Of a stretch of DNA of 56,191 nt, positions 1-56,191 are shown in pieces (within the stretch, counting starts at the first letter, position 1; each line of letters opens with the position of its first letter). This DNA is from a virus (taxonomy: Duplodnaviria > Caudoviricetes): positions 1 through 56,191 of IMG/VR virus record IMGVR_UViG_3300027987_000011. One strand, written 5' to 3'. The position numbers and the translations under genes are program-made. The notes under the pieces were generated by a model. That model worked only from the letters and a program-made list of their open reading frames with translations, ran no database searches and was not told the origin of the DNA.

Positions 1-40
1 AGCGGACCCCCTGACAGACCCGAAACGCGCCCGAATAGAC

Positions 41-69
41 TGTAACAATTTCGCCCGGATTGTAACAAT
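41..69 (+). repeat. Direct repeat TGTAACAAT x2, 20 bp apart
   Basis: Identical AT-rich 9-mers at 41-49 and 61-69 in a GC-rich background, about two helical turns apart, near the window end. Confidence 0.6.
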
Positions 70-101
70 GCGACGCACCCGCAGACAGGCACAGACAGCC
101 C

Positions 102-279
102 CCAGGGGGCTCCCAGGGCGCGCCCTGGGGGCTCGCAGGGGTGCGCCCAGGGGTGTCCTGGGGGGGTGCGCCTGGGGGCTGTCCTGGGGCACCCTGGGGC
201 GCTGTAGCTGGCGCAAGCTGGGGCACCCTGGGGCGCTCCCAGGGGCGCACCCTGGGGGGTGCCCTGGGGGGTGCCCAGG
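102..279. repeat. Helically phased CCWGG/G-tract array
   Basis: CCWGG starts at 102,113,124,147,157,171,183,193,227,239,251,263,275, plus GCWGG variants at 135,207,217. Spacing is 10-14 bp and most copies run into G tracts. Confidence 0.85.
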
Positions 280-320
280 CGCGGGGGCACCTAGCGGAAG
301 ACGTTGGGGCACTTGCAGAT

Positions 321-540
321 ACAGTACTAGATTCGTCGCGGGTAGTACTACTTTCGTCGCGGGTACCTCGCACCACAGTACTAGGATGGGCGCGGGTAGC
401 GGGGGGTCGGATCGCCCCTCGCGAGACAGTACTAGATCCGTCGCGGGTAGCAGGCTCGAAGCCCGCAGACACAGTACTAGATCCGTCGCGGGTAGCGGGC
501 TCCAGCCCTGCGCGGACAGTACTAGAATCGCCTCGGGTAC
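321..540 (+). repeat. Array of 25-bp direct repeats, consensus ACAGTACTAGATCCGTCGCGGGTAG, with hairpin spacers
   Basis: Copies at 321-345, 375-399, 426-450, 471-495, 516-540, plus an overlapping core copy at 345-366. The 426 and 471 copies are identical. Spacers are 20-29 bp, three with short stem-loops. Confidence 0.9.
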
Positions 541-565
541 ACACCCTGGGAGCGGTTCTGCTGTG

Positions 566-594
566 TTGACCCGTGGGGCATATGCCCCCATCAT
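566..594 (+). promoter_or_regulatory. Sigma70-like promoter with palindromic operator in the spacer
   Basis: TTGACC (566-571), 17 bp, CATCAT (589-594). The spacer holds the perfect palindrome GGGGCATATGCCCC (575-588). Lies 65 bp upstream of the ATPase ATG. Confidence 0.55.
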
Positions 595-659
595 TCAGAG
601 CGGCAGGGCAACCGTGCCCGCCGCCTCACTCCACCTGGGCTTTGCCCGGAGGATGCGCC

Positions 660-1721
660 ATGTCGGCCATGAGTTCCGTAGTACCCGACCTCACACCCTC
701 AGAGTTGGACATCCTGCTTACCGCAGCGATGCCAGCCCGGAAGCCCGTGATCGTCACGGGCGCACCGGGGGTCGGTAAGACCCAGATCATCCGGCAGGTG
801 ACGGCAAGGCTGGGCTTCAATCTCGTTCTCTCTCACCCTGCGGTCGAAGACCCGACCGTACCCGCAGGCTTCCCGTTCCCGTCGCCTGACGGGACGCACG
901 CGACGTTCCTCCCGTTCGGTAACACCTTCAAGGTGCTCCAGGCTGACGGGGGACCCATCACGGTGTGGTTCCTCGACGACTTCGGGCAGGCGACGAACGC
1001 GACCCAGGCAGGGTACATGCAGTTCCTCCTGGGCGGTCAGCTTGGCGAGCACAAGCTGCCCGACAACGTGGTGATGATCCTCGCGACGAACCGGCGCATT
1101 GACCGCGCCAACGTCGGCGGGATTCTGGAGACAGTGAAGTCGCGGGCCGTCACCATCGTGAATCTCGTGCCGGATCTGAACGACTGGTGCATCTGGGCGT
1201 TCGCGAACGGCATCGACCCCATCCTCATCGCGTTCCTGCGGTTCCGGCCCGACTTGCTGTGCGCGTTCGAGCCGACCGCCGACCTCACCAACAGCCCGCT
1301 CCCTCGCACCTGGGAGAACTTCAACGAGATCCTGTCCTGGGGTCTGCCGAAGGGGCTCCGCTCGAAGGCGCTGGGCGGCTCGACGGGTGTGCCCGCGACG
1401 ACGGAGTACGAAGCGTTCGAGTCGATGTTCAAGCAGCTTCCGAACATCGACGGCATCCTGTTGGACCCGGACAACGCGAAGATCCCCGACAGCCCCGGCG
1501 CGCTGTACGCAGTGACGACCGCGCTCGCGAGCAAGGTCAACGTCTCCAACTTCGGGCGCATCATCCGGTACGGCGAGCGGCTGATGGATGCGATGCACGG
1601 CGAGTTCGCTGCGCTCCTGATGAGGGACTGCACGCGCAGGGACCCCGACGTTGAGAACACCACCGACTTCACCCGGATGATCTCCGGGGACCTCGGTGGG
1701 CTGATCGGGGGGGCACTCTGA
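660..1721 (+). CDS. MoxR/AAA_5-like ATPase
   Basis: Walker A GAPGVGKT, Walker B WFLDD, sensor ATNR and a PRTW motif. Start moved to ATG 660 after GGAGG (648-652). Confidence 0.85.
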   Translation: MSAMSSVVPDLTPSELDILLTAAMPARKPVIVTGAPGVGKTQIIRQVTARLGFNLVLSHPAVEDPTVPAGFPFPSPDGTHATFLPFGNTFKVLQADGGPITVWFLDDFGQATNATQAGYMQFLLGGQLGEHKLPDNVVMILATNRRIDRANVGGILETVKSRAVTIVNLVPDLNDWCIWAFANGIDPILIAFLRFRPDLLCAFEPTADLTNSPLPRTWENFNEILSWGLPKGLRSKALGGSTGVPATTEYEAFESMFKQLPNIDGILLDPDNAKIPDSPGALYAVTTALASKVNVSNFGRIIRYGERLMDAMHGEFAALLMRDCTRRDPDVENTTDFTRMISGDLGGLIGGAL

Positions 1722-2611
1722 TGACTGACACCACGATTCACTCCAGGGCGGTTCTCGTGAGCCTGTCCATCTCGTCGTGGGCGGCTCGCAAGTTCGACAG
1801 GGTGGTCAGCGAGGAGACGACCCGCGCACACGGTGCGAAGGCAGATGCGGGCCGGTTCAACAAGGTGCTGATGCCCGCGAAGGAAGTGGCGGGCGCTGAC
1901 GCCTACTACGACCTCATCGCGCTCGTTCAGGACACGCGGAAGTGGCACTACGCGAACACGCTTCCTTGGACTGACGGCACGTCGGGATGGCGGCTGCTGC
2001 CTTCCGCCAACTTCATGCAGTACAGCGATCACACCCGCAGGGTAGCGGCTGACTTCGAGCGGATGGCAGACACGTTCGAGGTTGCGTACCCGTACCTGCG
2101 GGAGAAGGCACGCGAGCGGCTGTCGGATCTGTGGCGCGAGCAGGACTACCCGTCCATCGCGGAGATCCGCAGGAAGTTCGCGTTCAGGTTGGAGTACGCG
2201 CCCCTCCCGGCGCACGGCGACTTCCGCCTGGACCTCCCCAGCGCCACGCTGAACGATCTGGAGTCGCAGGTGCAGGACCGGATCACGCGGGCCACGCAGG
2301 CTGCGGCTGCGGACTGCTGGGAGCGTCTGCACACGGTCGTGTCGAACATGCACGAGCGGCTGACCGACGAGCGCACGGGGATCTTCCGCGACACGCTCGT
2401 GACCAACGTGCGCGATCTGGTGGACGTGCTCGCACGTCTCAACGTGACCGACGATCCGCAGTTGGAGCAGATGAGGGTGCGCGTGATGACGCAGCTTGCC
2501 GTACACGAGCCGCAGACGCTTCGGGACGACCCGGAGGTACGGCAGGACACCGCAGCGAAGGCAGCGGCGATTCTGGACGCCATGTCGGCGGTCTACGGGG
2601 GTGCGCGATGA
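1721..2611 (+). CDS. DUF3150-like helical protein
   Basis: AVLVSLSISSWAARKFD start, TLPW...GWRLLP and DYPS..EIRRKFAF motifs. Translationally coupled between the ATPase and VWA genes. Confidence 0.6.
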   Translation: MTDTTIHSRAVLVSLSISSWAARKFDRVVSEETTRAHGAKADAGRFNKVLMPAKEVAGADAYYDLIALVQDTRKWHYANTLPWTDGTSGWRLLPSANFMQYSDHTRRVAADFERMADTFEVAYPYLREKARERLSDLWREQDYPSIAEIRRKFAFRLEYAPLPAHGDFRLDLPSATLNDLESQVQDRITRATQAAAADCWERLHTVVSNMHERLTDERTGIFRDTLVTNVRDLVDVLARLNVTDDPQLEQMRVRVMTQLAVHEPQTLRDDPEVRQDTAAKAAAILDAMSAVYGGAR

Positions 2612-3963
2612 GAACCGCAGCGGAGAAGATGCAGGCTGCGCGCACCTCGCTGGTGCTCGACAGCCGCACGGCTTTCTTCGGGGTCCTGGCCCTGAAGCTG
2701 AAGATCGTCCCCGACCCGACGTGCGAGCGTGCGTGGGTCGATGGGGTGAGCCTGGGCTACAACCCCACCTACATCGACAGCCTCACGCTCGACAGGGTGA
2801 AGGGTGTGGTCATGCACGAAGTGCTGCACCCCGCGATGGGTCACAACTGGCGCAGGGACGGGCGCAGCCCCAAGCGGTACAACCGTGCCTGCGACTACGC
2901 GATCAACCCCATCATCGTCGAGTCGGGCTTCACGCTTCCTGACAACGTGTGCCTGGACGATGCGTACAAGGGCAAGTCGGCTGAGTGGATCTACGCTCGC
3001 CTGGACGACGAGCCCGAAGACCCCCAGGCGGGGGACGAAGGGGACAGCGGGGACGATGGCGACGAAGGGGGCCAGGAAGCCGCTGGGGGCTCCCAGGGCG
3101 ACGACGACGACGGGGACGGGCAGCAGAGCCCCGGAGACGGCGACGACGGCTCCCAGGGCGATTCTGGGGACGACGACGGGGACGGGGACGGCACGGGCGA
3201 CGGGCAGGGTGACGACGGGCAGGGGTCAGGTACCGCTCCGGGGTCGGGTACCCCCGACCTCACCTCGAACACCTGGGACGGTGTGAGGGACGCACCTGCC
3301 GACGCAGCGGAGCAGGATGCGGGTGAGGCCGACTGGAAGCGGTTCGTCCAAGAGGCCGCGAACGCTGCCGCAGCGCAGGGCAATCTCCCTGGCAACCTGA
3401 AGCGGTTCGTCGAGGAGATCACGCGGCAGCGCATGGACTGGCGGTCACTGCTGCGGCGGTTCATGCAGGAAGCGTCGAAGCTGGACTACACGTTCACCCG
3501 CCCGAACCGCGCCTACGTTCCTCACGGGCTGTACGTCCCCTCGCTGCACGCGGAGGGGATGGGTCCTGTGGTGGTCGGCTTCGATACGAGCATGAGCATC
3601 GACGACATCACGGTGTCGGTGTTCGGTGGTGAGACGCGGGACGTGATCGACGAAGCGCAGCCGATCCGCACTCACGTCGTGTACTGCGACACGCGGGTAG
3701 CGCATGTGGACACGTTCGAGCAGGGCGACCCTGTGGAGATCGTGCCGCATGGCGGGGGGGGAACGGACTTCCGCCCCGTGTTCGAGTACGCGGACAGCCT
3801 GGACGAGCCGCCTGCGGCTCTGATCTACCTCACCGACTTGATGGGGGACTTCCCAGAGCACGCACCCGACTACCCGGTGTTCTGGGCCACGGTGAAGCCC
3901 CTGAGAGAGCTTCCTGAGTACTACCACCCCCCGTTCGGGGAGGTAGTGGAGATCGACTGCTGA
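2608..3963 (+). CDS. DUF2201-type HExxH metallopeptidase-like + VWA-like protein
   Basis: HEVLH and NRACDYAIN motifs, a D/G-rich linker, MIDAS-like DTSMS, GGGGTDF and IYLTD. ATGA overlap with the upstream gene fixes the start at 2608. Confidence 0.85.
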   Translation: MRTAAEKMQAARTSLVLDSRTAFFGVLALKLKIVPDPTCERAWVDGVSLGYNPTYIDSLTLDRVKGVVMHEVLHPAMGHNWRRDGRSPKRYNRACDYAINPIIVESGFTLPDNVCLDDAYKGKSAEWIYARLDDEPEDPQAGDEGDSGDDGDEGGQEAAGGSQGDDDDGDGQQSPGDGDDGSQGDSGDDDGDGDGTGDGQGDDGQGSGTAPGSGTPDLTSNTWDGVRDAPADAAEQDAGEADWKRFVQEAANAAAAQGNLPGNLKRFVEEITRQRMDWRSLLRRFMQEASKLDYTFTRPNRAYVPHGLYVPSLHAEGMGPVVVGFDTSMSIDDITVSVFGGETRDVIDEAQPIRTHVVYCDTRVAHVDTFEQGDPVEIVPHGGGGTDFRPVFEYADSLDEPPAALIYLTDLMGDFPEHAPDYPVFWATVKPLRELPEYYHPPFGEVVEIDC

Positions 3964-4586
3964 TGGCACGCAGACGGTGGTACTGCCCGCAGTGCGGGGG
4001 GGGCATCCTCGCCCCCTCCCGCATGGCGGCAGACGACACACGGCGCTTCTGTCTGGAGTGCTCCGCGAAGTCACCGAAGCTGGTGGCCCGGACGTGCCCC
4101 AGCATGGAGCGGGTACGCGAGCGCAAGCAGGAGACGCGCAACCGACGCGAGCGCAACAGGCGGCAGCGCGAACGCGACAAGCTGTACCGTCTCACCGATG
4201 GGTCTGATCTGCGCGTGCTGATCCGTCGCGTGAAGGCGCTCACGACGTGGCGGAAGGAAGGCGAGCGGGTACGTCCCGCCCTGTCGAAGCTCACGGTCGA
4301 GGTGACAGACTCGCATCGCAGCATGGACGCTGACGGGTTTGTGATGGACATGATCGGCAGGTGCGCGTCGCGGACGCTGGAGGTTGTGCGGAAGACCCGC
4401 TCGGAGTCGAACCTGCGTAGCTTGATTCTCGCTGCGGGGTGCGAGTACTTCGGGCTGGATCAGGCAGACGTGATCCGACGCCACAGGGTGACGCACGCGC
4501 TGCGCGGCAGGGCAGACGACAAGCTGTACTACCCACCCACAATCATCGCAGCCGCCAGGGCTGCTAGGAGCGAACACGATGGGTAA
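3963..4586 (+). CDS. Hypothetical basic protein with N-terminal Zn ribbon
   Basis: CPQC and CLEC motifs. Start overlaps the previous stop. Confidence 0.6.
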   Translation: MARRRWYCPQCGGGILAPSRMAADDTRRFCLECSAKSPKLVARTCPSMERVRERKQETRNRRERNRRQRERDKLYRLTDGSDLRVLIRRVKALTTWRKEGERVRPALSKLTVEVTDSHRSMDADGFVMDMIGRCASRTLEVVRKTRSESNLRSLILAAGCEYFGLDQADVIRRHRVTHALRGRADDKLYYPPTIIAAARAARSEHDG

Positions 4587-4833
4587 GGTGCGCATCGACA
4601 AAACCATCTTGCGGGGGGATCGCGTCGGCCACGCCGACCGCTTCCTCGAAGACACGGGGCAGTTCACAAAGACCGACCGGGGACCCGACGCGCCGTGCCA
4701 CTGGGGCCACAACGCACGGGGCACGGTGAAGCACCGCGCCAACGGGTCAGCGTGGGTCACGGTCGAGTGGGACGACGGGGTGATCCGCAAGCACCTCGCG
4801 GGCAACCTGAAGCGGGTCAGCGACGACGGCTGA
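4579..4833 (+). CDS. Small hypothetical protein (SH3-like beta barrel?)
   Basis: Preceded by AGGAG. GDRV...GTV...VTVEWDDG pattern. Confidence 0.65.
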   Translation: MGKVRIDKTILRGDRVGHADRFLEDTGQFTKTDRGPDAPCHWGHNARGTVKHRANGSAWVTVEWDDGVIRKHLAGNLKRVSDDG

Positions 4834-4839
4834 TCCGTA

Positions 4840-4879
4840 GTACCATCATCTCCACGGGTACTTCGCTTCGGCGGGTACC
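4840..4879 (+). promoter_or_regulatory. Intergenic GTAC-N11-CGGGTA motif plus an overlapping N10 variant
   Basis: GTAC CATCATCTCCA CGGGTA at 4840-4860, overlapped by GTAC TTCGCTTCGG CGGGTAC. Same core as the 321-540 array. Confidence 0.65.
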
Positions 4880-4910
4880 CTCCACACCTGGGCGATGCCC
4901 GGAGGAACAC

Positions 4911-5375
4911 ATGAGAACCGATACCTGCTTCTTCTGCCGCCAGGACATCACGGACGGCGCGAAGGAATCTGGCTGGACCGGCCTTGGCCCCGACTGGATG
5001 GTCGATGGCGACTTCGGCTGCGACAAGAACCCGATCACGGGCGAGGAAGGCTGCGGTGGGCACATGACCCGCGAGGAAGCGATGGAGATTCTGACCCTCG
5101 CGCAGTTGGACGGACCCCTCGGGATGTTCGAGTTGATGCGCGAGCGGCTGTACGGCTCCCCTGCGTCGATGCGTGCAGAGGCCGATAGGCTGCTCGCGAA
5201 CGTCTGCGCGGATCTGATCCTCGTCGCGAAGGCCAGGGACGAGCGCCCGGACTTCGAGCGCAAGATGCGCGAGACGGTCGCGAAGAACCTCACCGACCTC
5301 GGCGCGGCGATCACGGGGGGCGGCTGGCCCGATCCGTTCCCCTACATCCGCCACGGGGGAGACGAGCGCATATGA
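4911..5375 (+). CDS. Hypothetical protein with Cys/His-rich N-terminus
   Basis: ATG 4911 after GGAGG. CFFC...C...C..H pattern. Confidence 0.65.
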   Translation: MRTDTCFFCRQDITDGAKESGWTGLGPDWMVDGDFGCDKNPITGEEGCGGHMTREEAMEILTLAQLDGPLGMFELMRERLYGSPASMRAEADRLLANVCADLILVAKARDERPDFERKMRETVAKNLTDLGAAITGGGWPDPFPYIRHGGDERI

Positions 5376-5923
5376 GCGCCCGTGTCCGCAACATCCAGAA
5401 TTGGAAGCCGACCCCGCTGGGCAGGAAGTGCGGCGGCTGCGACCTATGCTGCGTGAACCTGCCCATCGTCGCCCTGGAGAAGCTGGCGGGTGAGCGATGC
5501 CAGCACGCACAGGGGGACGGCTGCGCGATCTACGCAGACCGCCCCAAAGAGTGTGCCGACTACGGGTGCCTGTGGATCTTCGGGCAGGGCACCTGGGATC
5601 AGCGACCGGACAGGATGGGCGCGTGCCCGACGCGCACCGACAACGGGCGGTACGATGCGCTGTACCTCGTGCCGCCGATGACACCTGTGAACCTCTCGTC
5701 AGGCGTTAGGGCGTGGGTCCGCAGCCAGCAGCGCAGGAGCAAGCCTGTCGTGCTACTGTGGGGCGAAGGGTACAGCATCTCCACGATCCTCCACCCGGAC
5801 GGGAGACGCGAAGACCGGAAGACAGAGTGGGTGGGACCCCTGACACAGATCATCGACAACCGCAAAAGGACCCTGACCGATGACGCGCCCGACGACCGTA
5901 CCCGAACCGATCACACTGGATGA
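5372..5923 (+). CDS. YkgJ-like CxxCxxCC cysteine-cluster protein
   Basis: CGGCDLCC...RCQH...CAIYADRPKEC..YGCLW pattern. Confidence 0.75.
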   Translation: MSARVRNIQNWKPTPLGRKCGGCDLCCVNLPIVALEKLAGERCQHAQGDGCAIYADRPKECADYGCLWIFGQGTWDQRPDRMGACPTRTDNGRYDALYLVPPMTPVNLSSGVRAWVRSQQRRSKPVVLLWGEGYSISTILHPDGRREDRKTEWVGPLTQIIDNRKRTLTDDAPDDRTRTDHTG

Positions 5924-6122
5924 TGAGATCGCAGTGCTGAAGCTGCGCATCGGTGAGTCGGGTCTGTCCGCTCGCCGTTTCGCGGTCGAGGTACTGCACC
6001 GTGACGAGCGCACGGTTCGCAGATGGATCTCTGGGGACGTTGACATCCCCAACTGCGTGCTCGACTGGCTGATCGAACCATCCCCTCACCCCTGGCCCCC
6101 GAAGAAGAGAGGCGCACGATGA
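5880..6122 (+). CDS. Small HTH DNA-binding protein (XRE/Cro-like)
   Basis: GLSARRFAVEVLHRDERTVRRWISGDVDIP pattern. Confidence 0.7.
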   Translation: MTRPTTVPEPITLDDEIAVLKLRIGESGLSARRFAVEVLHRDERTVRRWISGDVDIPNCVLDWLIEPSPHPWPPKKRGAR

Positions 6123-6322
6123 TTCTCACGTTCCTGATGGTCACGTTCCGGCTCGTCGGTGCCGTCGCTGTGCTGCTCATCGGGATTGCCTGGACGGCTT
6201 CACACCTCGACAGGTTCTTCGAGCACCCCACCTGGGATGGCGCGATGGCGCTCCTGGCCTTCGGCACGTTCGTCGGTACGATGACGCTGGTGGGGGCCTA
6301 CATGATCTTGACCATCCAGTAA
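6119..6322 (+). CDS. Small two-TM membrane protein
   Basis: Two hydrophobic stretches. ATGA overlap with the HTH gene. Confidence 0.65.
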   Translation: MILTFLMVTFRLVGAVAVLLIGIAWTASHLDRFFEHPTWDGAMALLAFGTFVGTMTLVGAYMILTIQ

Positions 6323-6340
6323 GCCCCGGAGGTAGGGTAG

Positions 6341-6377
6341 AGCCCCCGTGGTCCGCTCAGGGCCACGGGGGCTTTCT
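6341..6377. terminator. Hairpin terminator between convergent operons
   Basis: AGCCCCCGTGG (6341-6351) pairs with CCACGGGGGCT (6363-6373), followed by TTCT. Lies between the plus-strand stop at 6322 and the minus-strand stop at 6379. Confidence 0.75.
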
Positions 6378-6378
6378 G

Positions 6379-7023
6379 CTACCCCCTGGCGGGTGCGGGC
6401 ACGGGGTGATCGCTCCAGGCATACCCGAAGCGGGCCATCTCCCGGTGGTACCGCTCTTCGATCCACTCCCTGCACAGCGGGTCGAGCTTCGCGCTGTAGT
6501 GCTCGCCCCTGGGCTTCGGCATCGTGTGGTGCTGAGACTCCGACCGGATCAGTTCGTCGGGCCGTAGGGGAGGGAGCCCGTGCCGCTCCAGCAACGCAGC
6601 AACGTCTTCCCGCGTGTGGTCGAACCGGATCTCCTGGCAGTCCCGCACCTCCCAGAAGCTCGGGAACAGGATATGCGCTCCTCGCCGGTACAGCATCGGG
6701 TGACGCCACAGGTAGTACTCGAACCGCTCAGGCGTCGGCGGATTCCCGCCGATGCCCGCGTAGGCGATGGAGTGGAAGACCTCGAAGTGGTTCCTGTGGC
6801 TGGCGTACCACGTCCAGTCCTGCTCGTCTTCTAGGTACCAGTCCCACGAATCACCCGCCATTTCATAGTGCGACGGGCGCGGGTTCTCCGGTCCCCAGGG
6901 CACGCCGTGATGCCCGTACAGTTGGGAGAACCCCCTGCGCTTCAGAACCTCTTGCCCGATCTCCCTAGATGCCGTCCGGGGGTTCGCGATGAACGCGACC
7001 TTGCACTGCCTGGAGATCCACAC
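6379..7023 (-). CDS. Sulfotransferase family 2-like protein
   Basis: WISRQCKVAFIANPRTAS (5'-PSB loop-like), HRNHFEVFHS (3'-PB-like), IRFD, and C-terminal HY...ERYHREMARFGYAW typical of the family. GTG start at 7023. Confidence 0.7.
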   Translation of the reverse strand: MWISRQCKVAFIANPRTASREIGQEVLKRRGFSQLYGHHGVPWGPENPRPSHYEMAGDSWDWYLEDEQDWTWYASHRNHFEVFHSIAYAGIGGNPPTPERFEYYLWRHPMLYRRGAHILFPSFWEVRDCQEIRFDHTREDVAALLERHGLPPLRPDELIRSESQHHTMPKPRGEHYSAKLDPLCREWIEERYHREMARFGYAWSDHPVPAPARG

Positions 7024-7024
7024 G

Positions 7025-7246
7025 TCAGGGCTTCCCCTGTCCCTTCGCTGCGTCGAGGCGACGCTGGTACTCCGCATCTTCCTCGGCCTGCTTGATCGCA
7101 GCCTCACGCTTCGCACGCTCGATCATCATGTCAGGCGTGCCGTGCTCGCTGACGATGGTCTTCGGCTTGCCCCTCGCCCAGATCGTCAGGGCGACGAGCG
7201 CGATGATGCCGACGAAGATCAGGAGCACGATGAAATTCTGGCCCAT
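7025..7246 (-). CDS. Small N-terminally anchored membrane protein
   Basis: Hydrophobic N-terminus and charged tail. GAGGTG RBS. Confidence 0.7.
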   Translation of the reverse strand: MGQNFIVLLIFVGIIALVALTIWARGKPKTIVSEHGTPDMMIERAKREAAIKQAEEDAEYQRRLDAAKGQGKP

Positions 7247-7262
7247 TGAGTCACCTCGCTTG

Positions 7263-7316
7263 GTACTGTGTGGGGGTCGGGTACCTAGTACTGCTCGGGC
7301 AGCGGGTACCTGTCAA
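7263..7316. promoter_or_regulatory. Tandem GTAC-N11-CGGGTAC motifs next to a minus-strand TTGACA
   Basis: Motifs at 7263-7284 and 7288-7309. TGTCAA at 7311-7316 reads TTGACA on the minus strand toward ORF 7025-7246. The -10 element is weak. Confidence 0.6.
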
Positions 7317-8014
7317 CGGCTCCCGATGCGAGCCGTGCGGAACGCCCTGACCAACTCCTCATTGAAGTAGCGGTTCCACTTCGAGTCGTAGGTCTTCTTC
7401 GCGTTGCCGAAGAACTCGTAGACGGGTTCGATCTCCGCGCTCTCGTGGAGAATCCACATAAGCTGCACGTTCGGGTCATCCTTCAGTCCGAACCGCTGCC
7501 CCGGAGCCGTCTTCGTGAAGCCCTTCTGCCTGCGGCCCAGGCGTTGGAACACGCCGAACTTCCCATCCTTAAACGGGACGAGAAACGTGCGCTTCAGCTT
7601 GCTCGGCCTCATGCGTGCCGGGATGAGCCCGGAGGCTAGGCGCTGAAGGCCGACAGGAGAGAACTGCGACTCTTCCTGCGGTGGGATCGCGAGCCGCTTC
7701 CTGCCGAACGTGGGCTCGCGTCTCCCGCCGTACTCCTGCCTGCGCCAGATGTCGAACTTGGGGACCTTGCCCTTCGGGTCGATGCCCATGACGCCAGTCA
7801 GGTCACTCACCTTCGCGAACTGGAGGATCTTCACCGACTGATCCCAGTACTGCTTCTTCCTGATCTCGAAGACCCTGCGCTGGTGGTACCGCTGGTACCT
7901 CTGCATCTCCAGAATCGTTCGGTTGATCGCCTTGTAGGTCGCGAACGGGAACTGGCGGGAGATGGTGTTGAACATGGCCCGAACCCTCCGGGCATCGACC
8001 TTGACTTGGAACAC
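7313..8014 (-). CDS. Basic phage protein, possibly gpZ-like tail completion protein
   Basis: FATYKAINRT N-terminal motif and very basic composition. GTG 8014 after GGAGGGAG. Confidence 0.5.
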   Translation of the reverse strand: MFQVKVDARRVRAMFNTISRQFPFATYKAINRTILEMQRYQRYHQRRVFEIRKKQYWDQSVKILQFAKVSDLTGVMGIDPKGKVPKFDIWRRQEYGGRREPTFGRKRLAIPPQEESQFSPVGLQRLASGLIPARMRPSKLKRTFLVPFKDGKFGVFQRLGRRQKGFTKTAPGQRFGLKDDPNVQLMWILHESAEIEPVYEFFGNAKKTYDSKWNRYFNEELVRAFRTARIGSR

Positions 8015-8247
8015 TACTGCTCCCTCCAGTGCCTCAGTCGGATCTCCACCAACGTGTTGCAGAGTGATCCGTCCCTGAGCAGGCGGGCGCACTGGTAGGT
8101 CTGGATCACGTCGTCGGGTCCAATCTCGGGATCGGTCAGCGCGTGCGCCAGCATCCTCATCGCAGCGTCGGTGTTCCGAAGTCGCACCGGAGCGTGGCAT
8201 GACGGGCAGCGAGCGGTGAGTCTCCACACCTTGGGTCTAACCAACAC
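8014..8247 (-). CDS. Small Zn-finger-like hypothetical protein
   Basis: CPSC plus two further Cys. Coupled to both neighbours. Confidence 0.5.
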   Translation of the reverse strand: MLVRPKVWRLTARCPSCHAPVRLRNTDAAMRMLAHALTDPEIGPDDVIQTYQCARLLRDGSLCNTLVEIRLRHWREQ

Positions 8248-10165
8248 CGACCCCCGTCGAACGTACTCGCCTGCTCACGGGCTTCACGCCCCCCGCCTTG
8301 ATCGCCGCAGCGATGGTGTCGAGCCGCACGCCGCTCAGGAACGCACCCTCGAACGCACCCAGGGCGTACACGCGGCAGTCCAGAGTCTCAGCGCGGCGAC
8401 CGGGGCGACGAATCCACACCCTCTTCAGGTACCCGTTCGGGGACCTCCGCACGACGACAAGCTCCGATGTCATCTGACGGAAGTACTCCTCGTCGTAGGG
8501 CTCGCGAGCGGGGAAGTGGGCGTAGCCTGGGATCGCCTCACCCTCCCATCCTTCGGGCTGCTGGATGCGGAGGTGGCTCATCACGACCGTCTTCGCCGTG
8601 TCCACGCCCATCGGGTAGAGTGGGACCTTGAACTTGTTCTTGATCGTGGGGCGGTCCCAGATCGGACGGCCCTCGCCCGCGATGCCCTTGATCGGCCAGA
8701 TGTTCGCAGCGCGTCGCGTGTGGCAGTACTTGTATACCTGCTGCGTCAGGTACCCGGAGTCGATGGCGGCGGCGAACACCTTCAGCTTCATGCCGCTCGG
8801 GTGCTGGAACTGACGTGAGAGTACGTGGTCGAGTGTCTGCCAGACCCCACCCTCCAGCGTCGGGTCGCCTGGGATGCGCAGGTAGTTCAGCGACCACGAC
8901 TCGTACCCCAGGCCCCAGCCTACAAGCTCGACCTCCAGGCGGTCGGCCTGGATGTCCACGCCAGCCGTGACCAGCAGTACTCCGGGCGGCACGGGCTCTT
9001 CGGGGTAGACCTCGCAACGTGCCAGCAGCGGGTGCGCGTCGAGGCGGAACCCCGCCTCTTTGAAGACCTCGCCCAGCACGGTGTTCACCCAGACCTGCAA
9101 CCGGAGGCGGTCGCCCTTCGAGTTCAGGAAGCCCGACACGATCTCCTGCCACTTCATCCACGGCGAGTAGAGCGCGTTCAGGTGGAACCCGATGGACTTG
9201 GGGCGCTTCACCGGAGCCTCGGAGCGGTGCCACGACCCATCCTCCGGGTCCAGATGTCCGTCGAGCCAGCGCCCGTTGAGCAGCATCCACATCTTCTTCC
9301 GCTCTGGGATCAGCGCACCGCAGGACTCGCAGGTGTACTCAGCCGTCTCGGGTAGGTGGACGCCTGAGTCGTCATCCTTGTCCCACACGATCTGGCTGAA
9401 CTCCAACGTCTGCTCGTGGGTGCAGTGAGGGCAGGGGACGTGGTACTTGCGCACCACATCAGCTTCCTTCATCGCGGCTTCGATGCGGCTCAGGTTCTCC
9501 AGCGTTGGGGTGCTCGCGTAGAACAACAGCCGGTTCCAGAACGTCCGCGTCCTGGCCTCCACGAGATCCATCGGATCGCCCTCGGCACCCGCGCTGGGTG
9601 CCCAGCCGTCGATCTCGTCGCCCAGGATGATCCGGCGCGCACGCGACCGAAGGCCAGCGGGAGCGTTCGACCCAGCGATGGCGAGGTGCCCACCTGGGAA
9701 CTCCTTCTGGAGTGTCGTGTTGGTGGCGTCGCGTGCCTTACTCGCGGCGACGCGGCTGGCGAGCACTGGCGTCGCGAGGATCATGGGCGTGATCCGTTCC
9801 TTCGAGTACGCCTTCGCCTCTTTCTCACCGATCTGCACCATCAGGATCGGGGAGGGGTCCTGATGGATGTAGTAGCCCAGCACGTTGTTCAGCGCCTCGG
9901 AGCCGCCGATCTGCGCTGCCTTCTGGAAGATTACCCGCTCGACCCCCGGCTCAATGCAGGCGTCCATGATGCCGACGAGGTAGGGCGTGCGCTCGTTTCG
10001 CCAACGTCCCGGCTCGGCGCTCGTGTCGGGCAGGTAGCGATACTGGTCTGCCCACTCCGACACGAGTAGCTGCTTCGGGGGAGTCAGTCGCTCGACAACC
10101 GTCTCCCACGCTGCTCGCTGGGCGCGCTGACGTGACTGGGTGGGGCTCAGGACGGCGGTTGTCAC
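8237..10165 (-). CDS. terL: Terminase large subunit, lambda GpA family
   Basis: VSEWAD, TPYL, KAAQIGGSE (Walker A), GDEID (Walker B), STPT, PCPHC, AGVDIQ and ETLDCRVYA motifs. Confidence 0.95.
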   Translation of the reverse strand: MTTAVLSPTQSRQRAQRAAWETVVERLTPPKQLLVSEWADQYRYLPDTSAEPGRWRNERTPYLVGIMDACIEPGVERVIFQKAAQIGGSEALNNVLGYYIHQDPSPILMVQIGEKEAKAYSKERITPMILATPVLASRVAASKARDATNTTLQKEFPGGHLAIAGSNAPAGLRSRARRIILGDEIDGWAPSAGAEGDPMDLVEARTRTFWNRLLFYASTPTLENLSRIEAAMKEADVVRKYHVPCPHCTHEQTLEFSQIVWDKDDDSGVHLPETAEYTCESCGALIPERKKMWMLLNGRWLDGHLDPEDGSWHRSEAPVKRPKSIGFHLNALYSPWMKWQEIVSGFLNSKGDRLRLQVWVNTVLGEVFKEAGFRLDAHPLLARCEVYPEEPVPPGVLLVTAGVDIQADRLEVELVGWGLGYESWSLNYLRIPGDPTLEGGVWQTLDHVLSRQFQHPSGMKLKVFAAAIDSGYLTQQVYKYCHTRRAANIWPIKGIAGEGRPIWDRPTIKNKFKVPLYPMGVDTAKTVVMSHLRIQQPEGWEGEAIPGYAHFPAREPYDEEYFRQMTSELVVVRRSPNGYLKRVWIRRPGRRAETLDCRVYALGAFEGAFLSGVRLDTIAAAIKAGGVKPVSRRVRSTGVGVG

Positions 10166-10791
10166 ATGTCCCCCATCCAGAGGCGGATCTTCTTCGCGGT
10201 CGCGCTACCGATCCCAGGCAGGTCTGTCAGTTGATCGACTTCGATAAGGTCCACCAAGGTACGGACCCCTGCGGCGATGAGCTTACCACGTCCCGGTATA
10301 TCCTTGGGCAACCCCTCGGAGTCTTCGATCCGGCGCTCGGCTTTTCCGACGATGGAGCGGAGCGCGTCGTCGATTTCTCGGACGAGGACTTGCTGGATGT
10401 CTCGCGCATCGTCGAGTCCGACCAGTCGTGGAGCGAGAGCGCCAGGGAGGTTGCGGACGTTCGACCGCACGAGGTCGAACGCCTCGGCCATAGCTGCCTT
10501 GTGCGCTTCGATGGTGATGAGACTGCCTTCATGTTGGGCATACTCCAGTTCCCTCCGTCTGCGTTCGATGCGTGCCGTCAACAGCTTCTCTTGATTCAAC
10601 TCCGACGTGCGTGTGGTCCCCTCGCTCATCCGCCGCAGATACGCGATGTACTGTGCGACGCACTCCTGAAGGCGGTACTTCCCCCTCCCTTCTTTCGGAA
10701 GAACCCCCTCATCGGTTAGCTGGATCACCCGACGCTGGGTCACGTCCAGCCATGAGGAAAGTTCCTTCAGACCCACTACATCGCTCGGCAC
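10162..10791 (-). CDS. terS: Terminase small subunit (Nu1-like) with C-terminal HhH domain
   Basis: N-terminal wHTH (ELSSWLDVTQRRVIQL..EGVL...GKYRLQECV), coiled coil and LPGIGSATA HhH. Directly upstream of terL. GTG start at 10791 is inferred. Confidence 0.85.
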   Translation of the reverse strand: MPSDVVGLKELSSWLDVTQRRVIQLTDEGVLPKEGRGKYRLQECVAQYIAYLRRMSEGTTRTSELNQEKLLTARIERRRRELEYAQHEGSLITIEAHKAAMAEAFDLVRSNVRNLPGALAPRLVGLDDARDIQQVLVREIDDALRSIVGKAERRIEDSEGLPKDIPGRGKLIAAGVRTLVDLIEVDQLTDLPGIGSATAKKIRLWMGDM

Positions 10792-10793
10792 AC

Positions 10794-11606
10794 CTAGCGC
10801 CTGTCGGAGCCGACCATCGCGAGGCTCCGGTATGCCCGCAGGCGTGAGAGGAACCTTCCCACCACATCCATCTGCGCCCACTTCTCCGCGAGCGCCTGCC
10901 TACTCAGGTTCGAGGTGACGATGGTCGGGTGGCCCTCGCGTGCATCGAAGATCGTCTCGACCACCCGGAACGCATCCGGGGTCAGCTTCTCCGTGCCCGC
11001 GTCTTCGTAGACCCACAACCGCGCCTTCTGCCTACGCTCGCTGAACTCGTCCACGCCCCCAGTCGAGTAGCGGTCCTGAAGCTGCGTGACCATCCGACGA
11101 GCGGAGTCGTAGACGATCTCGTGGTGACGCAGCACACCCATGCGTAGAAGCTCGTGGACGACCGCGACCGCGAACTGGGACTTCCCCGTCCCCGTGCCCC
11201 CCCAGACGAAGAGCCCCTGCACCTCGCCATACTTGCCAGCGGACAGCACGTCTCCGATGAACGACCTACCTGCCGTCTCAGCTTCCCCACCTACATCAGC
11301 CAGGAGCAGCTTCCCGTGCCTTCTCACGTTCACGCCCACCTTCTCCAAGCCCTGAAGCCCTTCGATCTCGGGGGAGGTGGACCGGAACTCCGGGGTGGGG
11401 ATCGTGACCTGCCTGAACGCGCCGTAGCACTCGCGGCACATGGGTTGTACTTCGACGCCTGCTGGTAGGCGGATGTTGCCGCCCTTCGGCTTCTCGAACT
11501 CTTTCCCGCACTCGGAGCAGACCTGCATCTCCGGTTCTGGCTTCGGCGGCAGTGCCGCCCTCTTCTCGTCCAGGCGCGCCTGGATCGCCTCCGGTGTGTC
11601 ACCCAT
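10794..11606 (-). CDS. DnaC/IstB-like helicase loader ATPase
   Basis: Two CxxC, GGTGTGKS, YEDAGTE, TIVTSNL and RFLSRL motifs. Confidence 0.85.
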   Translation of the reverse strand: MGDTPEAIQARLDEKRAALPPKPEPEMQVCSECGKEFEKPKGGNIRLPAGVEVQPMCRECYGAFRQVTIPTPEFRSTSPEIEGLQGLEKVGVNVRRHGKLLLADVGGEAETAGRSFIGDVLSAGKYGEVQGLFVWGGTGTGKSQFAVAVVHELLRMGVLRHHEIVYDSARRMVTQLQDRYSTGGVDEFSERRQKARLWVYEDAGTEKLTPDAFRVVETIFDAREGHPTIVTSNLSRQALAEKWAQMDVVGRFLSRLRAYRSLAMVGSDRR

Positions 11607-12559
11607 CAGTCGTCCATCCGCTTGTAGAGTCGGCCAGCGGGGTCACGGGCGAACCCCTCGGGTATGTCATCGTCCTGCTGCTTGGCTGGGGCACCCAGGG
11701 GAAGTTCCGCCTGCTGGTGTGGGGCCGACCGCTTGACGGCCACCTCCAGCTTCGTCTGGAGTGTCCGAATCTGCCCCAGGTGCCCACGAGAGGATGCGTA
11801 CATGCGTTCGGTTCTCTCCGACTCACTCAGAAGCTCGTTCAGGGATGTGGCGATCAGCTTCTTCCTGTCGCCCGGAGCGAGTGGACCGAACCCTCTGGGT
11901 CCCGTGCCGTGCTCCACCCAGGTCTGCACGGTGCGAAGGTACCCGTGCTGACGACTCGTCTCGACGCGCTCCCTGAAGTAGTCCTGCATCGCTGATCGAC
12001 AGCCTGCCCAGATCGGATCATCCAACGCCTGACTCACTCGCTTGTCCAAGGCATGTGCTGGGGGGACTACAGGGGGGCTACCTCTACGTACTCCTTCTTC
12101 TTCTTCTACTACTGAGGGGTCGCCACGCGACCCCCTAGGTGCCCCTGTGGGGTCGTTGAACGACCTCACTGGGTTTTCTTCGGGTGCCTGAAGGTACTCT
12201 GAAGGCCCTGTGGGTGCGCTAGGCGACCCCATAGGGTCGTCTCCTGTGGGGTCGCTGGGCGACCCCCTAGGTGCCTCCACTGTGAGGTCGCCCGGAGAAC
12301 CCCTATCTGGTGGGACGAACTCGTAGAAGTCCGACCTCCCCCATCCCCCAGGGGTGCGTTGCAGCCATCCGTGCTTCACGGCGGAAGCCAAGGCACGGCG
12401 CACTCTTACGCGACCTCCGTGGTCTAGGATCTCGCTGAACGTATCGAAGGGAATCTCGTGCTTTCCCTTCCCCCTCGTCGCCACAAAAATCACGACGGAT
12501 CGGGCGTCAGAAATTATGCGGAGGTCCGTCGCTAGTTTTTCGAGATCCGCGTTCAGCAT
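11606..12559 (-). CDS. Putative replication initiator (lambda O-like architecture)
   Basis: N-terminal wHTH-like segment and a low-complexity linker encoded by DNA repeats. Directly upstream of the DnaC-like gene. Confidence 0.65.
   Translation of the reverse strand: MLNADLEKLATDLRIISDARSVVIFVATRGKGKHEIPFDTFSEILDHGGRVRVRRALASAVKHGWLQRTPGGWGRSDFYEFVPPDRGSPGDLTVEAPRGSPSDPTGDDPMGSPSAPTGPSEYLQAPEENPVRSFNDPTGAPRGSRGDPSVVEEEEGVRRGSPPVVPPAHALDKRVSQALDDPIWAGCRSAMQDYFRERVETSRQHGYLRTVQTWVEHGTGPRGFGPLAPGDRKKLIATSLNELLSESERTERMYASSRGHLGQIRTLQTKLEVAVKRSAPHQQAELPLGAPAKQQDDDIPEGFARDPAGRLYKRMDD
12116..12275. repeat. Iteron-like repeats inside the initiator gene (putative origin)
   Basis: GCGACCCCCTAGGTGCC at 12127 and 12259, CCTGTGGGGTCG at 12144 and 12243, and alternating GGGGTCG/CGACCCC heptamers. 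A CTT/ACT tract lies just to the left. Confidence 0.6.
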
Positions 12560-19161: not shown

Positions 19162-19692
19162 TCAGTTCGGGTCCCCGGTCGGGTGCCCTCCCAGTGTGAT
19201 GTGTTCGAGCGTCGCGTTGATGACCTTCGTCCACGTCGGCTCGTGGTGGGGGTTCGGGAAGGGCGGCTCTGCGGGAACCAGCCCGTGGGCCACGCCCTTC
19301 GCGAGCAGTGTCAGAAGCTCCTGCGCCTGCTCGTCCGTCGCGTTGATGTGGATGCAGACGTTGATCGGGTGCAGGTGCGTGAACGTCTTCCCCTTCACCA
19401 GCATGTCGGGCTCCCACTCAGGGTGCTCGTCCGGTGCGAGCGCGACCATCAGGATCTCGTGGGTCGCCTCGGGGAACTGCTTCTTCGGCGGCTTGGTCTG
19501 GCCTGGGAGATCGCGGAGCGCGACCCCAGTCAGGACGTAGTACCTCCACGCGGGGGACTGCCCAGGGCAGTCGCAGAGCCATGCGTCCATCGTGCCTGCG
19601 GCCCGCCAGTCGCCCGTGTACTCAGGCTGCGGCATCCACTCGACGGTGCCCGCTGGACCGACGAACGACTTCACGTCAGGGTTCGTTCTCAT
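19162..19692 (-). CDS. Hypothetical protein
   Basis: ATGA overlap with the upstream gene. Globular composition. Confidence 0.65.
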   Translation of the reverse strand: MRTNPDVKSFVGPAGTVEWMPQPEYTGDWRAAGTMDAWLCDCPGQSPAWRYYVLTGVALRDLPGQTKPPKKQFPEATHEILMVALAPDEHPEWEPDMLVKGKTFTHLHPINVCIHINATDEQAQELLTLLAKGVAHGLVPAEPPFPNPHHEPTWTKVINATLEHITLGGHPTGDPN

Positions 19693-20921
19693 GTCTGGTT
19701 CCTCAGTCCCTCGTGGACGATCTCGTACAGCCGCCTCAGTGCCTTCTCCGGGTTCTTCCTCCCGCTCGACTGGTTCAGCGCCGATTCGATGTACGCCTCG
19801 GCCTCCAAGTCGAGCAGTTCCATCTCCCGTGCGGAGTCACGGTAGAGCCGCAGCGTGTTCTTCAGTTCGATGGGGTCCATGTCGGCGGGGTCTTTCGCCT
19901 CGCCGTAGCGACCCGGAGCCGGTGGGTCCTGCGAGGGAGGGTCGAAGAGGCCACCCTGGGGCTCCGGGCCTGCCTGCTGCTCCGGGGGGTCTTCGGCCTC
20001 TCCGACTTCCTCGCTGGTGGGTCCCTGGGGCTCCTGGGGCTCCTGTGCGGGCTCGACGGGCTCCAGCCCCTCTACCACCTCGTCCAGACGCTTCTGCGTC
20101 CCTATGGACGCCTCCATGCCCCGTGGCGGGCCGAACTCGTCCACGATCTCCTCGGCCTCTTCCTCATCCATCGCGTCGAGGTCTGCCTTCACCTCGCCAG
20201 CGGTGAGCAAGAGGCGCGAGCGAGTCGCTTCGAGTCGCTGCTTCGCGCCGACCATCAACTGGGCGGCGGTGTCGTAGTCCACGTTCAGGACGAGCGCCAC
20301 CTTGAACGACCGGCCCGTCCGATCCTTCCCGTCCTGCGTGTACGAATCCTCCGACTCGTAGCACATCAGCTTGACCGGAGCTTGGAAGAGCGTGCCGAAC
20401 CTCGCGTGGATCTCCTCCAGCGCGGTCTGGATGTTGTTGATCGACTCCCAGGAGCGCGTGCGGAAGACGTAGTAGCCCCCGGTGTAAGGGCTCGCTCGCA
20501 GTTGAAGCTGGAGCCGACCGTAGGGGCGACATGGGCAGGTGCCGCCGCCGATGCGCGAGCACGGTCCCTTCTTCCCCGTCTTCATGTCGGTCTGCTCTTC
20601 GCCGTCACAGGTGATCGACGGCTTCTTCCCTGCGTAGTGCGCCATCACGGTGTGGAGGTTCTGATCGACCTCGGGGAACATCAGGAAGCCCTCCAACTCG
20701 CGGGGGCTGTTGCCGATCTGCTCATGCACAGCTTCGTCCCGCTGGAAGGCTCCCTCGCCTCCCTTGCGCGTCCGGGTCACGACCTCGAAGTGGTCGTACT
20801 TCTCGGGGACGTACATCTGGTTTCCACCCGACGTGCCCGCCTTACGACCGCGCCCGCCCAGCTTGATCTTCCCGATCTCCTGGGGTCGCACCTCCAGCAA
20901 CCTACGGCTGATGAGGGTCAT
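19689..20921 (-). CDS. Gp3-like (recombination directionality factor-like) protein
   Basis: IGKIKLG, PEKYDHF, CDGE..C..CPCRPYGRLQ and GGYYVFRTRSWESI motifs. Acidic Pro-rich tail. Confidence 0.7.
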   Translation of the reverse strand: MTLISRRLLEVRPQEIGKIKLGGRGRKAGTSGGNQMYVPEKYDHFEVVTRTRKGGEGAFQRDEAVHEQIGNSPRELEGFLMFPEVDQNLHTVMAHYAGKKPSITCDGEEQTDMKTGKKGPCSRIGGGTCPCRPYGRLQLQLRASPYTGGYYVFRTRSWESINNIQTALEEIHARFGTLFQAPVKLMCYESEDSYTQDGKDRTGRSFKVALVLNVDYDTAAQLMVGAKQRLEATRSRLLLTAGEVKADLDAMDEEEAEEIVDEFGPPRGMEASIGTQKRLDEVVEGLEPVEPAQEPQEPQGPTSEEVGEAEDPPEQQAGPEPQGGLFDPPSQDPPAPGRYGEAKDPADMDPIELKNTLRLYRDSAREMELLDLEAEAYIESALNQSSGRKNPEKALRRLYEIVHEGLRNQT

Positions 20922-21259
20922 CAGTTCTCTCCCTCGAAGTCGTCGCGCATCGTCTCCCATAGCTCCTGCCACATGAGCAGCTTGCGGTCCTGTGAGTCAC
21001 GCATCTCCTCGTACCGCTTCGTGTGCGTCGCGAGGATGGCGGATGCCGCCACGAGGTTCCGTCCCGACTGCTGTAGGTTCTTCATCAGCAGCAGGGCGGA
21101 GCGCAGGTGGTTCAGGAACGCCAGCGCCTCGTTGTCGCCCAGGAAACGGTCGATGGTGACTTGCACGTCCGCGAGCCACTGATCCAGCGACCCCTCCGGG
21201 GGTATGGTGGTGAAGGCCGACGTGACCGCCAACATCATCTGCATCTCTCTCTGGCTCAC
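20921..21259 (-). CDS. Hypothetical helical protein
   Basis: Coupled to both neighbours. Confidence 0.6.
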   Translation of the reverse strand: MSQREMQMMLAVTSAFTTIPPEGSLDQWLADVQVTIDRFLGDNEALAFLNHLRSALLLMKNLQQSGRNLVAASAILATHTKRYEEMRDSQDRKLLMWQELWETMRDDFEGEN

Positions 21260-22970: not shown

Positions 22971-23230
22971 GGGAACACCTCGTCGGGCGGATCGCCGGGA
23001 CGCTCGACGTAGACGAACTCCAGCTTCCCATCCTTGTACCTGAGATGCGTGTCCCAGCCCAGCGTGTCGGCGGCAGCAGCGCGCTCTGCGATGCCTCGCA
23101 GGTCCCAGCCCTCCGATAGTCGCTTCCCGTCGAAGACGAACATTATCCGGCGACGCGGGCGTGCCACCTTCCAGACCCACGCCACCATGACGCGCTGGAG
23201 CCTGCGGTACGGCCCCTCTCTGTTGCCCAT
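22967..23230 (-). CDS. Hypothetical protein
   Basis: ATG 23230 overlaps the upstream stop. Confidence 0.55.
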   Translation of the reverse strand: MGNREGPYRRLQRVMVAWVWKVARPRRRIMFVFDGKRLSEGWDLRGIAERAAAADTLGWDTHLRYKDGKLEFVYVERPGDPPDEVFP

Positions 23231-24147: not shown

Positions 24148-24422
24148 CAGTCTCTCCGCTCGAAGCTGGTAAGGAAGCGTTCCATCTCGGCGTTCTGCTC
24201 CGGGGTGAGTGGCTGGTTCAGCATCTCGTCCCTGACGAACGACAGAAGTCCGTCGCGGACCTGCCGGATCGTCTGGAGGCCAGTCCACCGCTCACCCGTC
24301 ACAGTGTCTTCCAGGGTGTAGTCCCCGGTGTCGCCGGTCAGGATGAAGCGACCGTCCGGGGAGTCTTCGCGGCCACCCTGCGGGTTCCGTACCCAGGCGA
24401 CCGGCTCGTACTTGCTGGTCAT
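24147..24422 (-). CDS. Hypothetical protein
   Basis: ATG 24422 in ATGA overlap. Confidence 0.6.
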   Translation of the reverse strand: MTSKYEPVAWVRNPQGGREDSPDGRFILTGDTGDYTLEDTVTGERWTGLQTIRQVRDGLLSFVRDEMLNQPLTPEQNAEMERFLTSFERRD

Positions 24423-55787: not shown

Positions 55788-55992
55788 GCGGCACCAGCGT
55801 TCTCACTCGGATACCTCCGGTGGACTCACGAGCGACCTCCGCTTCCAGTTGCCCTCGAAGGCGACGGAGCTTGTCGAGGTCGTGTTCGCGGTAGCGACGC
55901 CCGTTCCATTCCGCCTCGGAGTAGCCGCCAAGCAGGCGCATGATCGTCTCGTTCAGAGCGTCCAGAAGCTCCTGCGAAGTCGGTGCCGCCAT
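55780..55992 (-). CDS. Head completion protein (gpW-like)
   Basis: Short helix-hairpin protein (NGRRY...LDKLRRLR..LE) immediately before the portal gene. Confidence 0.75.
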   Translation of the reverse strand: MAAPTSQELLDALNETIMRLLGGYSEAEWNGRRYREHDLDKLRRLRGQLEAEVARESTGGIRVRTLVPRG

Positions 55993-56012: not shown

Positions 56013-56053
56013 GGAAAAAGGCCCCAACCCCCGATCCGGGGGCGTGGGGCCTC
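56013..56053 (-). terminator. Intrinsic terminator in the leader of the late operon
   Basis: Minus strand AGGCCCCACGCCCCCGGATCGGGGGTTGGGGCCTTTTTCC: a GC stem plus U tract. Confidence 0.7.
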
Positions 56054-56188: not shown

Positions 56189-56191
56189 ACC

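Follow-up and report, generated by a model that had tools for sequence, protein, structure and literature searches.

Positions 321–540 of the phage contig analysed here contain a genuine cis-element under selection, made up of 12 same-strand half-sites of a lineage-specific motif. The motif occurs in many copies in two related phages, keeps its strand polarity and has promoter-like neighbours in both, and its cores have been selectively conserved. We infer that a protein binds the array and that binding affects transcription. Our tentative interpretation is that the array is a double-stranded DNA platform for a putative lineage-specific protein that controls the adjacent early promoter.

The window, by which we mean the whole stretch of DNA analysed, is an entire IMG/VR record of 56,191 bp (class 'linear', about 80% complete according to CheckV, 64% G+C). 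The phage is a lambda-like siphovirus. Read on the minus strand from 56 kb downwards, its genes run from the portal through the head protease, tape-measure and tail genes, a RecE-like exonuclease, a RuvC-like resolvase, a DnaC-like loader and a small terminase to a GpA-type large terminase. The left 6.3 kb form an island on the plus strand, in the opposite orientation to the rest, which also includes six small ORFs, among them one for an 80-aa HTH-like protein (5880–6122). Genes referred to below are as follows.

54093–55787, minus strand: portal, at the start of the gene order read from 56 kb downwards
10162–10881, minus strand: small terminase (terS)
8237–10165, minus strand: GpA-type large terminase
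660–1721, plus strand: MoxR-type AAA ATPase, with its ATG at 660
Plus-strand island, listed between the ATPase and DUF2201 genes: 296-aa protein
2611–3963, plus-strand island: DUF2201 metallopeptidase/VWA protein

No tRNAs were found in the window, megablast of positions 1–3000 against a phage collection gave no match, and a PADLOC run on 10 island proteins was likewise negative. Elsewhere, a 352-aa protein (23230–24288) matches the PHROG family 'DNA topoisomerase' (E = 5.6e-107) and has no Pfam match, and a Gp3-like domain resembling recombination directionality factors lies at 19689–20972.

A search for AGTACTA-N9-CGGGTA allowing up to 2 mismatches gave 9 matches in the window against 0.25 expected, a number reached in 0 of 100 shuffles, and 6 of the 9 fall within 323–539. 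The repeats reported at 321–540 in a sequence-only reading of this DNA therefore exist, far beyond chance. That reading counted five of them; there are six (starts at 321, 342, 375, 426, 471 and 516), because a copy at 342–366 that overlaps the first by 4 nt had been missed.

321–345, plus strand: copy 1, cores GTAC at 324 and GTAG at 342, PWM score 42.9 bits
342–366, plus strand: copy 1b, cores at 345 and 363, PWM score 35.1 bits
375–399, plus strand: copy 2, cores at 378 and 396, centre the most divergent of the copies
426–450, plus strand: copy 3, cores at 429 and 447
471–495, plus strand: copy 4, cores at 474 and 492, identical to copy 3 at 25 of 25 positions
516–540, plus strand: copy 5, cores at 519 and 537, nearest to the promoter and ending 25 bp before its −35 hexamer

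The period of 45–54 bp given earlier applies only if the overlapping copy is disregarded. Actual start-to-start distances are 21, 33, 51, 45 and 45 bp, which leaves gaps of −4, 8, 26, 20 and 20 nt between blocks, and the copies are 83–96% identical to the reference copy. Each 25-mer consists of two half-sites, one of a 'CA' type (CAGTACT) and one of a 'CGG' type (CGGGTA[C/G]), with the GTAC/GTAG cores of each pair 18 bp apart, so that the array comprises 12 cores, all on the plus strand. The earlier reading overlooked this half-site unit and the strand-polar, lineage-wide nature of the motif. Its statement that variation is concentrated in the repeat centre is correct in outline, but the centre is not free: the copies at 426 and 471 are identical over the whole 25-bp block and match at 13 of 20 positions outside it (84% over 45 nt). 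Selection or gene conversion therefore maintains the whole block, and its centre with it.

An ORF that stays open across the array (141–569) is not a gene; by our frame assignment its third codon positions have the lowest G+C (0.45–0.57), whereas GC3 exceeds 0.8 in real genes of this genome. GTAC as a restriction-avoidance signal was also rejected, with 251 occurrences observed and 261 expected.

The array is flanked by a block of CCWGG(G) sites on one side and a promoter-like site on the other.

101–279: 13 CCWGG(G) sites with an 11–12 bp period, directly upstream of the array
566–594, plus strand: predicted sigma-70-like promoter, TTGACC-17-CATCAT, for the ATPase operon (MoxR-ATPase/DUF2201)
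575–588: 14-bp perfect palindrome in the spacer of this promoter, occurring once in the window

The CCWGG(G) block carries runs of at least 4 G on the plus strand. The promoter-like site is the sole sigma-70-like site in positions 1–800 (1 found, 0.1 expected). The palindrome within it probably serves, independently of the array, as a conventional operator for a dimeric repressor; an imperfect dyad lies, on our reading, at the corresponding place in a promoter-like site of the relative G001 described below (locus L175, 1356–1372). Closer to the left end, in the least G+C-rich stretch there, two copies of TGTAACAA(T) are found at 39–70, 20 bp apart, and this 8-mer has no other occurrence in the window. 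The translation starts at 632–655 and 4886–4910 share a near-identical leader, in which a short GGGC-N3-GCCC hairpin is followed by GGAGGA. The gap at 4830–4913 can be aligned with the promoter at 566 and its leader (P = 0.007).

The spacers between repeats had been described as carrying small stem-loops, and stems are indeed present in 3 of the 5 intervals.

399–422, spacer: G+C-rich inverted repeat, −17.9 kcal/mol, P = 0.008 (shuffles) and 0.001 (genomic segments)
450–466, spacer: weak inverted repeat, −7.3 kcal/mol, P = 0.064 (shuffles) and 0.14 (genomic segments)
495–511, spacer: weak inverted repeat, −8.8 kcal/mol, P = 0.27 (shuffles) and 0.063 (genomic segments)

Only the stem at 399–422 is individually significant, and the 8-nt interval 367–374 and the stretch beyond the last copy have no notable stem. 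The alternation of sites and hairpins described in that reading did not hold up as a defining feature: there is one significant hairpin, and since the arrays of G001 consist of contiguous 17-bp units with no hairpin spacers, the alternation is not a feature of the family. The spacer hairpins look incidental.

With the pattern GTAC-N10-13-GGGT[AT], 13 matches were obtained on the plus strand of the window and 2 on the minus strand, where 0.86 were expected on both strands together; the reversed-pattern control gave 0 and 1. Matches outside the array include two groups.

4838–4881, plus strand: possible small cluster of three GTAC cores spaced by 18 and 17 bp, in the gap that precedes the gene starting at 4911
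7262–7310, plus strand: site pair with cores at 7263, 7281, 7288 and 7306, occupying most of the gap between the minus-strand ORFs 7313–8227 and 7025–7246

Neither is individually significant (PWM scores of 12.4 and 10.0 bits against null maxima of 6.6–16.3). The first is weak taken alone, its 12.4 bits lying within the null range, and alignment of the 7240–7330 region by itself did not reach significance (P = 0.06). Both sites gained weight because G001 has counterparts of them. Minus-strand genes of the window are not enriched for the motif (1 copy, 1.0 expected), which here is essentially intergenic and promoter-adjacent.

A portal-based scan identified two close relatives, G001 (52,168 bp, portal 76% identical, CheckV completeness 100%) and G002 (11,571 bp); a TerL-based scan for relatives returned only sequences of at most 45% identity. 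G001 keeps synteny with the window, starting at the DUF2201 gene. Its contig begins inside that gene and is without the ATPase gene and the region upstream of it, despite the CheckV value of 100%. By our translation, its first 300 positions (L175 1–300) are a highly repetitive Gly/Gln/Glu-coding stretch of the DUF2201 gene. Across all 52,168 bp of G001 the GTAC-N10-13-GGGT[AT] pattern occurs 26 times in the forward and 0 times in the reverse orientation, always between 1.2 and 20.0 kb. The chance expectation is about 0.9 (first 36 kb), and the reversed-pattern control gave 0 and 3. Copies are grouped as follows.

G001 1199–1321: array of eight cores with a strict 17-bp period, preceded by a CCWGG-rich block (L175 960–1120)
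G001 3000–3036: cluster of three cores with 17-bp spacing just ahead of an internal gene, in the place matching window 4838–4881
G001 4685–4728: pair at an intergenic position homologous to window 7262–7310
G001 9182–9222: two overlapping copies whose junction, CGGGTAGTACT, is that of the window copies at 321 and 342

The eight-core array is followed by a 28-bp gap, the hexamers TTGACT-17-TATCGT (our reading) and a start codon. The order of elements is shared by both phages: a CCWGG-rich block, the array, a gap of 25 bp (window) or 28 bp (G001), and a promoter-like site. In the homologous pair, cores are identical between window and G001 at 24 of 26 positions and centres at 5 of 19, as counted by us on the alignment. 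Eleven copies in G001 lie inside minus-strand ORFs, compared with 0.58 expected, and 0 of 300 codon shuffles reached 11. These intragenic copies are spread through the genes and not gathered near gene ends. The motif keeps one strand in regions of plus-strand and minus-strand genes alike.

Beyond these two phages, an exact-pattern scan of IMG/VR gave 14 matches, all of them single chance ones, with no second array. The same scan of metagenomes returned at least 119 stretches; each of the 80 listed had a single match, and no second array was present among the matches listed. Public sequencing runs yielded no RNA run with the sequence, and their assembled contigs were low-depth fragments, none spanning positions 1–1000. 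Distant relatives of the ATPase cassette (43–45% identity; L009, L010, L011–L013 and L016) are also repeat-rich upstream of the ATPase gene, with other motifs, namely GAGAATC(C/T)-type arrays and 11–12-bp iterons. L009, L010, L011 and L016 also encode a homologue of the small HTH protein, divergently oriented with respect to the repeat-rich region.

In the platform interpretation, the recognition element would be an asymmetric GTAC/GTAG core with a CGG or CA prefix, present in the array as six pairs with cores 18 bp apart. A sequence-specific protein of the phage lineage would bind head-to-tail along the array, and the array would set the activity of the ATPase-operon promoter, as an upstream operator or activator platform; control of this promoter is proposed because the array ends 25 bp before the −35 hexamer. 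The smaller clusters at 4838–4881 and 7262–7310 may extend this control to other points of the left-arm gene island. We rate this reading as the most likely because the array-to-promoter layout recurs in G001 at a different gene. Overlapping copies 21 bp apart and a strict 17-bp period are too tight for promoters or RNA units and are typical of packed protein sites. That distant ATPase-cassette relatives (43–45%) have arrays of another motif upstream of the ATPase gene was also counted in its favour, as were the excess of copies over chance, the stronger conservation of block than spacer in copies 3 and 4, and the kept cores of the pair homologous to 7262–7310. On the other side, the palindrome at the 566–594 promoter would serve a dimeric repressor without the array, the distal window sites are individually non-significant, and the obvious HTH candidate is unsupported. 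Nor are the fixed strand, whatever the gene direction, and the 11 intragenic copies in G001 predicted by a plain operator model.

The HTH candidate is the small Xre-like protein encoded at 5880–6122, which gave no sequence match in Pfam, NCBIfam or the PDB. Its AlphaFold model (mean pLDDT 72.9) produced weak Xre-type matches in Foldseek to HigA2, HipB and Aca2, the best with E = 0.36 and a TM-score of about 0.53. The putative recognition helix reads RTVRRW in the window and G001 and STIYRW in four relatives with a different array motif, a split that looked like covariation before a wider test. We found 50 IMG/VR loci with a relative of the HTH protein and examined 27, one of which is G001. Of 25 other loci with a translated HTH segment, 21 have RTVRRW or RTIRRW, each with only 0–2 motif matches, and L226–L228 have another helix type. 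The apparent link did not survive this wider test, and the protein is not supported as the binder.

Known operator networks resemble the array in some respects and differ in others. The orientation of stoperators follows the direction of transcription, and here site orientation was not tied to it. Stoperators are single 13–14-bp sites, whereas the sites described here form tandem arrays at 17–45 bp and keep their strand whatever the gene direction. The stoperators of Cluster A mycobacteriophages are reported to be, as here (13 plus and 2 minus in the window, 26 and 0 in G001), asymmetric sites with many copies per genome whose orientation matters, and to be bound by a phage protein that is not necessarily a symmetric dimer (PMC9283540). 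The Apl arrays of phage 186 (RDF/Cox/Apl type) offer a second parallel, with several same-orientation sites between or beside early promoters that are reported to be bound cooperatively (PMC7498355). Apl sites are one helical turn apart, in contrast to 17–18 bp within pairs and 21–51 bp between copies in the array.

Strand polarity keeps a different reading alive, which we consider unlikely: the motif may be a strand-polar signal for a directional DNA transaction, such as the recognition site of a phage nicking system. Less concrete versions would have it arrest or attenuate a replication fork, an end-entering nuclease or a DNA-entry motor. The window array would then be a dense cluster of sites 320 bp from the probable left genome end. 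In favour of such a signal are the 26 forward and 0 reverse copies in G001, all confined to 1.2–20.0 kb, and the 11 copies inside minus-strand ORFs, where 0.58 were expected, spread through the genes.

The position of the array relative to the genome ends also speaks for a polar signal. Upstream of the portal gene, the contigs of the window, G001 and G002 all stop at one and the same homologous nucleotide, with 16 invariant columns among the first 17 of their terminal alignment (window 56175–56191). Because three related contigs share the exact end nucleotide, the right end of the window is a physical genome terminus. Position 1 is probably the other genome end, in which case the array lies about 320 bp inside it. 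The left-end 20-mer of the window is absent from IMG/VR, and other matches to the right-end 17-mer are unrelated coding DNA. About 70 bp inside the right end, the minus strand has a promoter-like site (56122–56093) and a terminator-like hairpin (56041–56022), followed by a small ORF starting near 55990 (our reading) and then the portal gene; the 54-aa segment at 55826–55990 has no Pfam match. This layout, in the 56015–56122 region, resembles a late promoter with a leader terminator.

Nick-associated motifs provide the closest precedent for a polar signal. According to the sections of the two sources drawn on here, phage tf has 14 nicks at TACT/RTGMC, on a single strand only; WACTRTGAC occurs at 13 sites in Rembedalsseter, all on the same strand, where chance would give about 0.7; in the group related to Rembedalsseter, copies of the motif cluster in one portion of the genome and 88% of them fall in coding sequence; and phiKMV-like phages have the bipartite consensus CGAC-N5-CCTA/CTCCGG (PMC3517423, PMC11780129). 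To the extent covered by those sections, the tf, Rembedalsseter and phiKMV-like motifs show the same signature as the motif studied here, being strictly one-stranded, enriched, regional and located within coding sequence, and the phiKMV-like consensus is bipartite as well. The nick consensus sequences and the array motif also have an ACT element in common, a weak resemblance. In contrast, known nick motifs are dispersed singly, and the same sections do not describe tandem arrays at 17–45 bp for them; here arrays stand beside promoters, in an unrelated lambda-like siphovirus. Minus-strand genes of the window are not enriched (1 copy against 1.0 expected), and no nickase was identified.

A more specific form of the polar signal, which we regard as distinctly unlikely, would make the motif a genome-axis signal read on one strand, a bipartite, array-forming relative of nick-associated motifs and not a transcriptional operator. 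In that case the 12 cores would mark programmed strand breaks clustered near the genome end, or alternatively form a trap for a DNA-tracking machine coming from that end (nuclease, replication fork or DNA-entry motor).

The same terminal position bears on a further reading, which we judge improbable: a role in packaging (cosB-like) or replication (iteron), with the small terminase or an initiator protein binding the array. Short same-strand repeat arrays lie just inside the ends of T7 DNA, and the R sites of lambda cosB are about 45–50 bp apart. Like the array, whose genome end is probable, they are found within a few hundred bp of an end; unlike them, the G001 arrays are internal and terS is not adjacent. 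A cosB role is weakened because G001 has arrays at several internal places, not at one terminal place, and because terS (10162–10881) is about 10 kb from the array. Plasmid and phage iterons are tandem direct repeats of 17–25 bp, and the sopC units of the F plasmid measure about 43–45 bp and contain an inverted repeat. The array has similar repeat and unit sizes, and its tandem same-orientation repeats of about 17–22 bp are iteron-like. However, the motif occurs at several loci and not at a single one in or beside an initiator gene or origin, no ParA, ParB or Rep protein was detected among the 49 ORFs scanned with Pfam and/or PHROGs, and inverted repeats are the least conserved part of the unit here.

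A better origin candidate is found at 12109–12311, where a 36-bp repeat occurs in about 3–4 tandem copies with an inverted repeat in each. These repeats lie within a minus-strand ORF of 317 aa that matches no family (11606–12559), just upstream of the gene for the DnaC-like loader, and look like a lambda-style origin inside an initiator gene. A point in favour of a packaging or origin role comes from L191, a 74-kb IMG/VR contig that has no protein in common with the window. About 3 kb of it (3300–6400) are without codon-position G+C bias and carry GGGTA[CG] 89 times on one strand and 3 times on the other, with terS and terL directly downstream. The hexamer is that of the array motif, and the field of one-strand repeats that it builds is very large.

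All array copies are oriented towards the ATPase operon, and clusters lie just upstream of internal plus-strand genes in the window (4838–4881) and G001 (3000–3036). This arrangement would suit a set of tandem early promoters, in which each copy is a promoter or polymerase-recruiting element for a non-canonical sigma factor or phage-modified polymerase, and the −10 element of Gram-positive SigB/SigF-type promoters is similar to GGGTA[C/T]. We nonetheless find this quite improbable. Copies that overlap at 21 bp, or cores that recur every 17 bp as in G001, cannot each be a promoter. There is no sigma-70-like hexamer pair within the array, scans of 49 ORFs turned up neither a sigma factor nor an RNA polymerase, and copies inside or facing minus-strand genes would yield antisense RNA only.

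Very little probability attaches to an array that acts as RNA. Such an array would be processed into unit-length ncRNAs, soak up a protein as a sponge, or present a NusG paralogue with an ops-like signal on the non-template strand. The strong spacer hairpin at 399–422, a z-score of −2.5 for plus-strand folding of 300–660 and a loose resemblance of the right half-site to the ops element count towards an RNA role. Yet the array is upstream of the only promoter-like site in 1–800, its overlapping copies fit unit-length RNAs poorly, the G001 arrays have no hairpins, and the motif is on the wrong strand for the minus-strand genes that hold copies. Rfam gave no match at E up to 10, and no NusG-like protein was detected among the scanned ORFs. 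A neutral minisatellite is given a similarly slim chance.

A mini-CRISPR or set of solitary repeat units is effectively refuted, for although repeats of about 25 bp alternate with unique stretches of 20–26 nt in three units, the copy at 342 overlaps the one at 321, one spacer measures just 8 nt, the repeat centre varies and the same core forms contiguous 17-bp units in G001. The sequence-only reading had favoured a bipartite protein-binding site over a CRISPR repeat, and the overlapping copies, together with the kept cores and replaced centres in the homologous pair of the relative, bear this out. It had also noted the absence of cas genes, and no Cas family was found among the 49 window ORFs scanned with Pfam and/or PHROGs. 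Rfam searches of positions 1–1200, CRISPR repeat families included, had no match at E up to 10. Blastn of the 361-nt region 300–660 returned nothing at E up to 1 from 50,697 phage and 72,556 plasmid records, a search in which spacers this short are hard to detect.

Taken alone, the array is unremarkable, as protein-binding repeat arrays next to phage early promoters are common. What is unusual is a half-site unit that occurs on one strand only across two phages, that forms tight tandem arrays beside promoter-like sites, and that in G001 also runs through coding sequence, on the antisense strand of the genes that contain it. In combining these traits, the motif stands between orientation-dependent operator networks and nick-associated motifs, both of them poorly understood. 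If the motif marks nicks or another polar process, it would be an instance from a lambda-like siphovirus lineage that is bipartite and forms arrays; if it belongs to an operator network, it would represent a new specificity with an unexplained strand rule.
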